Shown here: in pieces, positions 49,297 through 49,844 of the stretch | How the letters are laid out: every line of letters starts with the position of its first letter | Position numbering within the stretch: position 1 is the first letter of the stretch | IMG/VR virus record: IMGVR_UViG_3300030250_000013 | DNA length: 54,876 nucleotides | Reading direction: 5' to 3' (one strand) | Source of the DNA: a virus | Taxonomy: Duplodnaviria > Heunggongvirae > Uroviricota > Caudoviricetes | The notes under the pieces: model-generated | Databases searched by the model: none | The model's input: the letters and a program-made list of their open reading frames with translations, nothing else | Told to the model about the DNA's origin: nothing | Made by a program: the position numbers and the translations under genes

Positions 49297-49399
49297 AAAT
49301 TTGTCTCCCATAAATTTTAAATTAGTTTCCCACAGATACCCACGGGTTGTCCACACGCCCTGTTTTACAGCTAATACAATGTTAGTATTAATTTTACAG

Positions 49400-49797
49400 T
49401 TAGTGCACAACATGCACTAATTTTCGACTATATACATAAATACGCAATCCATAATCACAATAATTTCAAAGACTTGCATAAAAACATAGATTACAATAGG
49501 TATCTCCCAGACTTTTATTTTAGCTCTATTTACAGCTAATACACTATATGCACTATCTCTATCTTTCTATACTACTTCTTTTTTATATCTATGTTTTCTA
49601 TGTTATCTATGAAAAGATAATAAAAAGAATAAGATAGGGAAGGGTTGGTTAAAAAGTAAACATGACGAAATCTATGTTAAATATAACTTTAATGCACAAT
49701 ATGCACTATATAATTCACAACGTGCATTAGCTGTACCAACATAGATACACAACGTGCACTAACAGCTAATACACAACGTGCATCTTGCACTAGCTGC
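49400..49797. promoter_or_regulatory. array of palindromic operator/iteron-like sites
   Basis: TTAGTGCA-CAACA-TGCACTAA (49400-49420); further (A/G)CACAA(C/T)(A/G)TGCA(C/T)-type sites at 49691-49710, 49723-49742 and 49746-49797; AGCTAATACA motif at three positions. Confidence 0.45.
49572..49676. repeat. ~100-bp AT-rich element, copy B (paralogue at 32665-32764)
   Basis: Shared sequence block as listed for copy A. Confidence 0.7.
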
Positions 49798-49844
49798 TAA
49801 AGCACGTTATGATTTACCCGTGGTTAAATAAGAAGGGTGTGATA

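Follow-up and report, generated by a model that had tools for sequence, protein, structure and literature searches.

We analysed a 54,876-nucleotide stretch of viral DNA (IMG/VR record IMGVR_UViG_3300030250_000013; Duplodnaviria, Heunggongvirae, Uroviricota, Caudoviricetes), hereafter called the window, with a focus on region B, a 548-bp non-coding gap at 49297-49844 that holds an array of palindromic sites around an AT-rich element. Because its two ends share an exact 99-bp overlap (1-99 = 54778-54876), the window is circularly closed, and it represents the complete circular genome, about 54,777 bp, of a Sashavirus/9NA-like siphophage. The phage is virulent and lacks lysogeny genes. Sasha, Sergei, KarinMuster_Bas82, AVIO78A and others are 94-96% identical to the window across the region B area, and Sasha is collinear with the window in reverse complement. 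For the comparison with relatives, the regions upstream of terS from 11 IMG/VR contigs, three Logan contigs and several GenBank phages were examined.

Region B lies between two divergent genes, which are those given in a preliminary description of the window made from the sequence alone. On its left is terS (48661-49296, minus strand), encoding the small terminase of 211 aa. Its start at 49296 follows the Sasha annotation, is the same in that of 9NA, and is served by a GGGAGA ribosome-binding site (RBS). In the KarinMuster record (PQ850612, Bas82_0095), terS is 39 codons longer at the N-terminus and begins at an ATG at 49413, inside one of the palindromes (B2 below); the start at 49296 is the credible one. 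On the right is a gene (49845-50621, plus strand) for a 258-aa protein of the Sasha gp81/9NA gp84 family (PHROG 25538), a predicted tandem of Xre-type helix-turn-helix (HTH) domains. This gene is monocistronic and is closed by an intrinsic terminator at 50627-50652 (GCGGGG...CCCCGC followed by T6, plus strand; annotated in Sasha).

The repeated motif of region B is a 19-bp palindrome, TARTRCA-N5-TGYAYTA. Three copies, all read on the plus strand, lie to the left of the AT-rich element: B1 (49372-49390, TAATACA-ATGTT-AGTATTA, one mismatch), with the outer element TTTACAGC before it; the perfect B2 (49401-49419, TAGTGCA-CAACA-TGCACTA), preceded by TTTACAGT; and B3 (49537-49555, TAATACA-CTATA-TGCACTA), immediately left of the element. 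To the right, also on the plus strand, follow B4 (49690-49708, TAATGCA-CAATA-TGCACTA), B5 (49711-49729, TAATTCA-CAACG-TGCATTA, with the outer element GGTACAGC on its right flank, minus strand), B6 (49743-49761, AGATACA-CAACG-TGCACTA) and B7 (49767-49785, TAATACA-CAACG-TGCATCT). A weak eighth site, B8 (49798-49816, minus strand), has three mismatches, and its equivalent matches the motif better in Sasha and L010. By eye, a putative sigma-70 promoter of the tandem-HTH gene, TTGCAC-17 nt-TATGAT, can be read at 49785-49813 on the plus strand; its -35 is weak and falls below the scan threshold, and the promoter is conserved in 7 relatives. B7 abuts the putative -35, and B8 overlaps the putative spacer and -10. 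A sigma-70 scan of region B returned no promoter above the threshold of the tool. A sigma-54-type promoter considered upstream of terS was rejected by inspection.

The array is real and specific. With up to two mismatches, TARTRCA-N5-TGYAYTA has 9 sites in 54.8 kb against 3.4 expected from shuffles, and their distribution is confined: seven copies and the weak one fall within 49372-49816, two in a second locus, region A (at 32779 and 32842), and none elsewhere, the sole palindrome match beyond the two regions being a weak three-mismatch one at 31963. The stricter version with an NAAYR centre, TARTRCANAAYRTGYAYTA, gave 16 strand-hits at up to three mismatches (2.4 expected), a count reached in 0 of 100 shuffles, and CACAAYRTGCA was matched five times against 0.22 expected. 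The palindrome scan thus supplies the statistical support called for in the preliminary description, which had reported a dyad-symmetric array of at least six sites sharing its motif with region A; the array starts at 49372 and holds seven to eight sites rather than six. The individual sequences it listed are present. The perfect 8+5+8 palindrome TTAGTGCA-CAACA-TGCACTAA lies at 49400-49420 and AATGCACAATATGCACTA at 49691-49708, both as claimed, and the three AGCTAATACA motifs are found at 49369, 49534 and 49764, with a further copy as AGCTAATGCA on the minus strand at 49723. Two positions needed correction: TTCACAACGTGCATTAGCT is at 49714-49732, nine nucleotides from the 49723-49741 given, and the double site ACACAACGTGCACTAACAGCTAATACACAACGTGCAT is at 49747-49783, displaced by one.

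Since the Sasha record labels the equivalent of 49400-49420 a "terminator", we considered whether the palindromes are incidental hairpins, intrinsic terminators or chance AT-rich repeats. As RNA this palindrome would form a hairpin of -10.6 kcal/mol (z = -3.9) followed by TTTT. However, its stem has only three G-C pairs in eight, no plus-strand gene ends upstream, and the terminator scan does not pick up the palindrome. The motif moreover recurs nine times, mostly without a T-run, at two loci only, and comparison with relatives shows the placing of the sites and the type of motif to be either conserved or covarying, which leaves this explanation hardly any probability.

The AT-rich element of region B is a 100-bp sequence (copy B, 49577-49676, plus strand) that is 90% identical to 32665-32764 (copy A, plus strand) in region A, as the duplication noted in the preliminary description implied. 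It contains three tandem 9-mers, TCTATGTTT TCTATGTTA TCTATGAAA, at 49588-49614, followed by an A-rich tract. By nearest-neighbour stability, the least stable 60 bp of the whole genome are 49576-49636, which comprise the 9-mers and A-rich tract (GC fraction 0.16) and form a candidate DNA-unwinding core without strand; the second least stable segment is the core of copy A, 32667-32727. Both cores lie about 4 standard deviations below the mean stability of the genome in the window, and the cores of regions A and B also rank first and second for instability in Sasha, BDX09P1 and 9NA. In every lineage the sites bracket the 9-mer/A-rich core, with three on the left and four to five on the right in the window.

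Rfam searches (gathering thresholds over the whole window, permissive ones over region B) and ARAGORN gave nothing relevant, with no Rfam family or tRNA in region B, so the element is not a known RNA; its fold as single-stranded DNA is unremarkable (z = -1.7). No credible small open reading frame (ORF) was found in region B: a 22-aa ORF beginning in the element has only 7 aa in copy A, and the small ORFs of region B lack conservation. Of the eight genomic copies of the heptamer ATCTATG, seven fall in regions A and B (49485-49491 on the minus strand, 49587, 49605, 49670, 49740 on the minus strand, 32758 and 32766). In all lineages a copy is often found immediately upstream of a site; 9NA shows weaker clustering (5 of 10), and we keep the heptamer as a lead only.

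Region A lies 17 kb from region B and is unlinked to it. Here the main virion-structural operon (minus strand) and a small-gene cassette (plus strand) diverge from a common control region, which carries a smaller unit, consisting of the core and two sites, both of the form TAATACA-GAACG-TGTATTA on the plus strand. A1 (32779-32797) has the outer element GTTGCAGC on its right flank, and A2 (32842-32860) lies 8 bp upstream of the UP-like part of a promoter at 32872-32894. This promoter belongs to an early family, AAAATAATTCTTGACNNATTRCA, of 23 bp, in which a UP-like tract is followed by the -35 and then by a conserved GATTACA. The window holds 13 copies against 0.01 expected, at 90-112 (minus), 1634-1656 (minus), 6949, 7013, 32559 (minus), 32872, 36769, 38541, 40763, 44211, 45981, 47595 and 48083. 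They stand at the head of the replication operons and of the small-gene cassettes lying among the virion genes, and one precedes the structural operon. Two of the 13 flank region A; none is in region B.

We then turned to the protein that may read the sites. The product of 49845-50621 comprises a variable N-domain (residues 1-58), a conserved middle domain (82-173), a linker of five EAPVARV units and conserved C-terminal helices. The AlphaFold model of the full protein (predicted local distance difference test score, pLDDT, 76) has a four-helix N-domain, a helical middle domain, a disordered linker and two C-terminal helices. Modelled alone, the middle domain reached a pLDDT of 92.8, and its best structural matches were Xre/Cro domains. 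On these predicted structures, the protein shows the four- to five-helix lambda-repressor-like fold and is a tandem of two Xre-type HTH domains; the assignment rests on structure and not on sequence; hhalign of the N-domain against the middle domain supported an internal duplication only weakly (probability 19.5%). The protein of the L011/Klebsiella lineage has three HTH domains. The linker is encoded by in-frame 21-bp tandem repeats (50400-50504), and its copy number differs among relatives, the repeats spanning 282 bp in Sasha and having more copies in P0002. A similar Ala/Pro-rich repeat occurs at 9624-9704 in the gene for an Enc34-type single-stranded DNA-binding protein (SSB)-like protein.

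The family is narrow. By sequence or profile the protein had no match in Pfam, NCBIfam, PADLOC or PDB, its only hit being PHROG 25538, of unknown function, and it showed no homology to known Rep, O, DnaA or DnaD initiator families (Pfam, NCBIfam, PHROG annotation, PDB). About eight true relatives were found by exhaustive searching of 1.8 billion representative proteins, the other matches being to the low-complexity repeat. It is present in 23 phage records, all 9NA-like and all annotated "hypothetical", and a counterpart was absent from 72,556 plasmids and from the E. coli genomes searched.

Comparison across relatives showed that the layout of region B is kept while its motif changes. Close relatives retain the site positions, with substitutions at the degenerate R/Y positions. 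Distant lineages retain the architecture, with one to three sites on the terS side, the 9-mer/A-rich core, and four to eight sites that reach as far as the divergent gene's start. The repeat motif differs from lineage to lineage: TARTRCA-N5-TGYAYTA is the window type, and the others are TAACA-N5-TGTTA in 9NA and L013, CTTACCAGATGT in L011, L015 and L030, ATAAC-N5-TGGTT in L029, and a CTATSAYAG-type motif in BDX09P1 and P0003. In region A, window-type phages, 9NA, L013/L027, L011/L025 and L015/L023 each have two sites of the motif proper to their lineage; the motif of region A matches its own lineage in five of the seven genome types. In 9NA, region B has seven copies of the motif and region A two; four more lie elsewhere, where about three are expected by chance.

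The motif type follows the N-domain of the HTH protein. Between lineages the N-terminal approximately 58 residues are 29-40% identical and the remainder 46-95%, and about six N-domain types go with about six motif types. The putative recognition helices group as the motifs do, a similar helix accompanying a similar motif: KVTIGRYNQW in the window, QITTTRYREW and TVNVTRFREW in 9NA and L013, NVNKGRFTEW and TVNKGRFNEW in L011 and L030, and QITVSRYKEW in L029. The preliminary description had proposed this product as a binder, and it is the best candidate on two counts, the predicted tandem Xre-type fold and the covariation of its N-domain with the motif. From this pattern in the sequences, the array is very probably the target of the adjacent tandem-HTH protein.

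The same comparison bears on two other proteins that might read the region. One is TerS, if the repeats or the 9-mer element were the pac recognition region, an assembly site of the terminase for headful packaging like P1 pac or SPP1 pacL/pacR. The position directly upstream of terS, the use of pac-site headful packaging by 9NA-like phages, the flanking of a central element by repeat sets as in P1 pac, and the retention of both the 9-mer core and TerS across lineages are consistent with this. However, TerS keeps 82-100% identity between lineages with unrelated palindromes, and the motif covaries with the HTH protein instead. The unit is also duplicated in region A, yet 9NA virion DNA has a single pac fragment. 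A pac function is therefore improbable. The other is a ParB-like protein with an HTH_ParB domain and a GEHRLRG motif, encoded at 54049-54816 (minus strand) and highly conserved across lineages, for which the palindromic, clustered sites could form a parS centromere-like array, as the preliminary description had suggested. This part of its proposal is not supported: the ParB-like proteins of the window and 9NA are 90% identical, with one substitution in the HTH, although the site motifs are unrelated. Since both proteins are near-identical across lineages with different motifs, neither is the reader of the palindromes; the ParB-like protein could at most read a conserved motif, and a centromere here is very improbable.

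An outer element, GTT(T/A)CAG, stands directly 5' of many half-sites in every lineage. Outer and inner elements adjoin as TTTACAGC-TAATACA and GTTGCAGC-TAATACA in the window, AGTTACAGA-TAACA and AGTTTCGTC-TAACA in 9NA and L013, GTTTCAG-CTTACCAG in L011 and GTTTCAT-ATAAC in L029. This adjacency of GTTWCAG to half-sites explains the AGCTAATACA motifs noted earlier. We infer that the variable N-domain reads the lineage-specific inner element, here TARTRCA, and the conserved middle domain probably reads the outer element GTTWCAG. In the three-domain L011 lineage the sites are non-palindromic and seemingly carry a third sub-element, as judged from few sites. In the region A of the close relatives L019-L022 the central 5 bp are sometimes inverted (GAACG to CGTTC) with the arms unchanged; inversion of the centre between constant arms suggests that the arms are recognised symmetrically.

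Differences among relatives also concern the number and origin of the sites. A segment of 63 bp with two sites is absent at 49804/49805 in the window and L007 and present in Sasha, KarinMuster and L008-L010. The indel falls between repeats of GCTGCTAA, which indicates that site number changes by recombination between these repeats. Two phages are mosaics. In Sasha, region A (KX987158, 15736-16136) has L011-type sites, CTTACCAGATATG, together with an HTH protein and a region B of the window type. BDX09P1 (OZ035775) is a natural swap, in which the N-domain (40% identical) and the proximal array have been replaced together; the rest of the protein is about 95% identical, and window-type sites are retained near terS and in region A. 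These mosaics imply that the distal sites are dispensable, which fits a secondary origin and a non-essential operator equally well.

What the array and its protein do can be read in two main ways. The preliminary description had left a genetic switch, a replication origin and a centromere side by side; with the centromere set aside, the finding that the sites bracket the least stable segment of the genome gives support to the origin-type reading over a plain operator. We tentatively interpret region B as an iteron/DNA-unwinding element (DUE)-type origin module with a cognate, probably autoregulated, binding protein, an interpretation that is the most probable of those considered and still more doubtful than assured. 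Seven to eight repeated sites cluster around an AT-rich core that is among the two least stable loci in four genomes, and next to them lies a candidate initiator gene whose specificity covaries with the iteron-like sites. The phage encodes its own replisome (an NrS-1/P4-type primase-helicase, a superfamily 2 (SF2) helicase, an Enc34-type SSB and a DNA polymerase), and no recognised initiator was found among its encoded replication proteins. Sites at only two loci, compared with 13 early promoters and many late operons, fit an origin better than a global regulator.

Under the origin reading, region B would be the cis target array of the dimer-forming two-HTH protein of the adjacent gene. The protein would load on the iteron-like sites, and once bound it would distort or open the adjacent unwinding element; its conserved C-terminal part may then recruit the phage replisome, that is, the primase-helicase, the SF2 helicase and the DNA polymerase. 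Through the proximal sites, which overlap its own weak promoter, it would further act as an autorepressor, and in some lineages it would repress terS as well. Binding, melting, initiation and autoregulation are all proposed steps of this scheme.

Several points weigh against an origin. Neither DnaA boxes nor IHF sites were found. The Xre/Cro fold is characteristic of transcription regulators, and known phage and plasmid initiators are mostly winged-helix proteins. Low duplex stability is common in promoter-rich intergenic DNA too. The covariation of motif and N-domain could partly reflect the physical linkage of the proximal array to that domain, and the distal sites appear dispensable in Sasha and BDX09P1. 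Finally, in 9NA, L013 and L011 sites occupy classic repressor positions: one lies between the terS RBS and a conserved terS-upstream block (GACAACCCGTGGGTATCTGTGGGAAACTA, 49323-49351 in the window, minus strand), and another overlaps the start of the HTH gene.

These repressor positions are among the grounds for a purely transcriptional switch, a less probable but real possibility. In such a switch the protein would be an autoregulated repressor, or a repressor/activator, with the palindromes as its operators; it would control its own promoter, terS and the plus-strand cassette promoter of region A, and the AT-rich element would be no more than promoter DNA of a curved or UP type, which may favour looping of the left operators to the right ones. 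Phage repressors, Cro proteins and Aca autorepressors all have the Xre/Cro fold, the sites are dyad-symmetric and operator-like, and B7 and B8 abut or overlap the putative promoter. In every lineage A2 adjoins the UP-like part of the early promoter, and swapping of specificity is also seen in heteroimmune repressor/operator pairs. However, seven to ten sites spread over 450 bp around the least stable 100-bp element far exceed the needs of known operator regions. Between lineages the spacing of A2 and the -35 ranges over about 25-33 bp, which leaves no fixed activation geometry. Sites occur at only two of many promoter regions, the other 11 early promoters having none; the phage is virulent, with lysogeny genes absent; and no promoter in region B was recognisable in the sigma-70 scan. 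Under either reading, autoregulation and some control of terS are likely, given the Xre fold, the overlap of sites with the putative promoter, and the sites at the terS RBS and the gene start in relatives.

Known systems offer partial parallels for an origin module. As is established for ori-lambda, several dyad-symmetric sites of about 19 bp lie beside an AT-rich region, and the lambda O protein, like the protein here, joins a type-specific N-terminal DNA-binding part, which covaries with the iterons and defines specificity types of lambdoid origins, through a flexible linker to a conserved C-terminal part that probably contacts the replisome. The differences are that ori-lambda lies inside the O gene at one locus, whereas the sites of region B are intergenic, upstream and repeated at a second locus, and that the O N-domain is a winged helix in place of two Xre-type HTH domains; neither sequence nor profile similarity of the HTH protein to O was found. 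SPP1 G38P with oriL/oriR and P4 alpha with ori/crr resemble the present case in having one phage-encoded origin binder with repeats at two separated loci, and SaPI Rep/ori in having element-specific iteron sets on both sides of an AT-rich melting region adjacent to the rep gene. The SPP1, P4 and SaPI binders, however, have an unrelated fold or helicase/primase domains, whereas the protein here is a small HTH-only one and the P4-type primase-helicase is a separate gene in the window phage. Iteron plasmids (pSC101 RepA, F RepE, P1 RepA) likewise place an array of Rep sites directly upstream of the rep gene, overlapping its promoter for autoregulation, with an AT-rich DUE containing short tandem repeats adjacent. 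Their Rep proteins differ from the window protein in having two winged-helix domains and binding direct repeats as monomers; in addition, the plasmid search found no homologue of the HTH protein, and no DnaA boxes were recognised here.

The transcriptional reading has its own parallels in lambda CI/Cro with OR/OL and in the Aca autorepressors, which share the Xre/Cro fold and palindromic sites of 17-19 bp; CI/Cro also has two operator loci, swaps of specificity among related phages and, as is probable here, an autoregulated promoter. In contrast to CI/Cro, the phage here is virulent, its family has two or three HTH domains per chain and bipartite half-sites, and seven to ten sites extend over 450 bp around a 100-bp duplex-stability minimum. 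The proposed recognition by two helical domains of one chain recalls that of POU-type proteins; this is an analogy of mechanism with a eukaryotic system, and no homology is implied.

A broader proposal, rather unlikely in its full form, is that the gp81/gp84 family is an unrecognised class of initiator, made of tandem Xre-type HTH domains, with a conserved domain and outer element, a swappable N-domain and inner element, two 9-mer-centred origins per genome, exchanged cassettes, and a number of domains per chain that matches the layout of the site. Two domains would go with palindromes having two sub-elements per half-site, and the three domains of the Klebsiella/L011 lineage with non-palindromic sites having three sub-elements. 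Cassettes of N-domain and proximal array would be exchanged between co-infecting phages, giving rise to replicon "incompatibility types" in virulent phages.

Outside the array, the block upstream of terS is kept across lineages whose flanks are otherwise unalignable, and it is probably the terS promoter or 5' leader. A further sequence, ACCCGTGGKTA, is enriched in the window (16 matches at up to one mismatch against 1.6 expected), with copies at 49337-49347 (minus), 44179-44189 (minus), 49816-49826 (plus) and 33616 (minus), and at position 2473 in L023-L027. It precedes terS, terL and the HTH gene by 28-51 nt, and in 9NA-type phages it immediately precedes the structural operon. A role as a late-promoter or leader element is possible; within genes, however, its part CCGTGG is often met as a Pro-Trp codon pair (52 copies), which weakens it as a late-promoter motif.

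The 9NA-like phages (Sashavirus/Nonanavirus) infect Salmonella, E. coli and Klebsiella, are used in biocontrol and are represented in the BASEL collection. In the part of their records and literature that was covered, a replication origin, gene control or these repeats were not described. The present analysis yields a concrete candidate for an origin and its initiator. It also yields a natural set of orthogonal pairs of DNA-binding domain and site, with about six specificities on one scaffold, and a model of bipartite recognition. If the protein and its sites are only an autorepressor and operators, they form an ordinary though well-defined regulatory module. If region B is an origin, tandems of Xre-type HTH domains can serve as initiators, and virulent phages would diversify their replicon specificity as lambdoid phages do.

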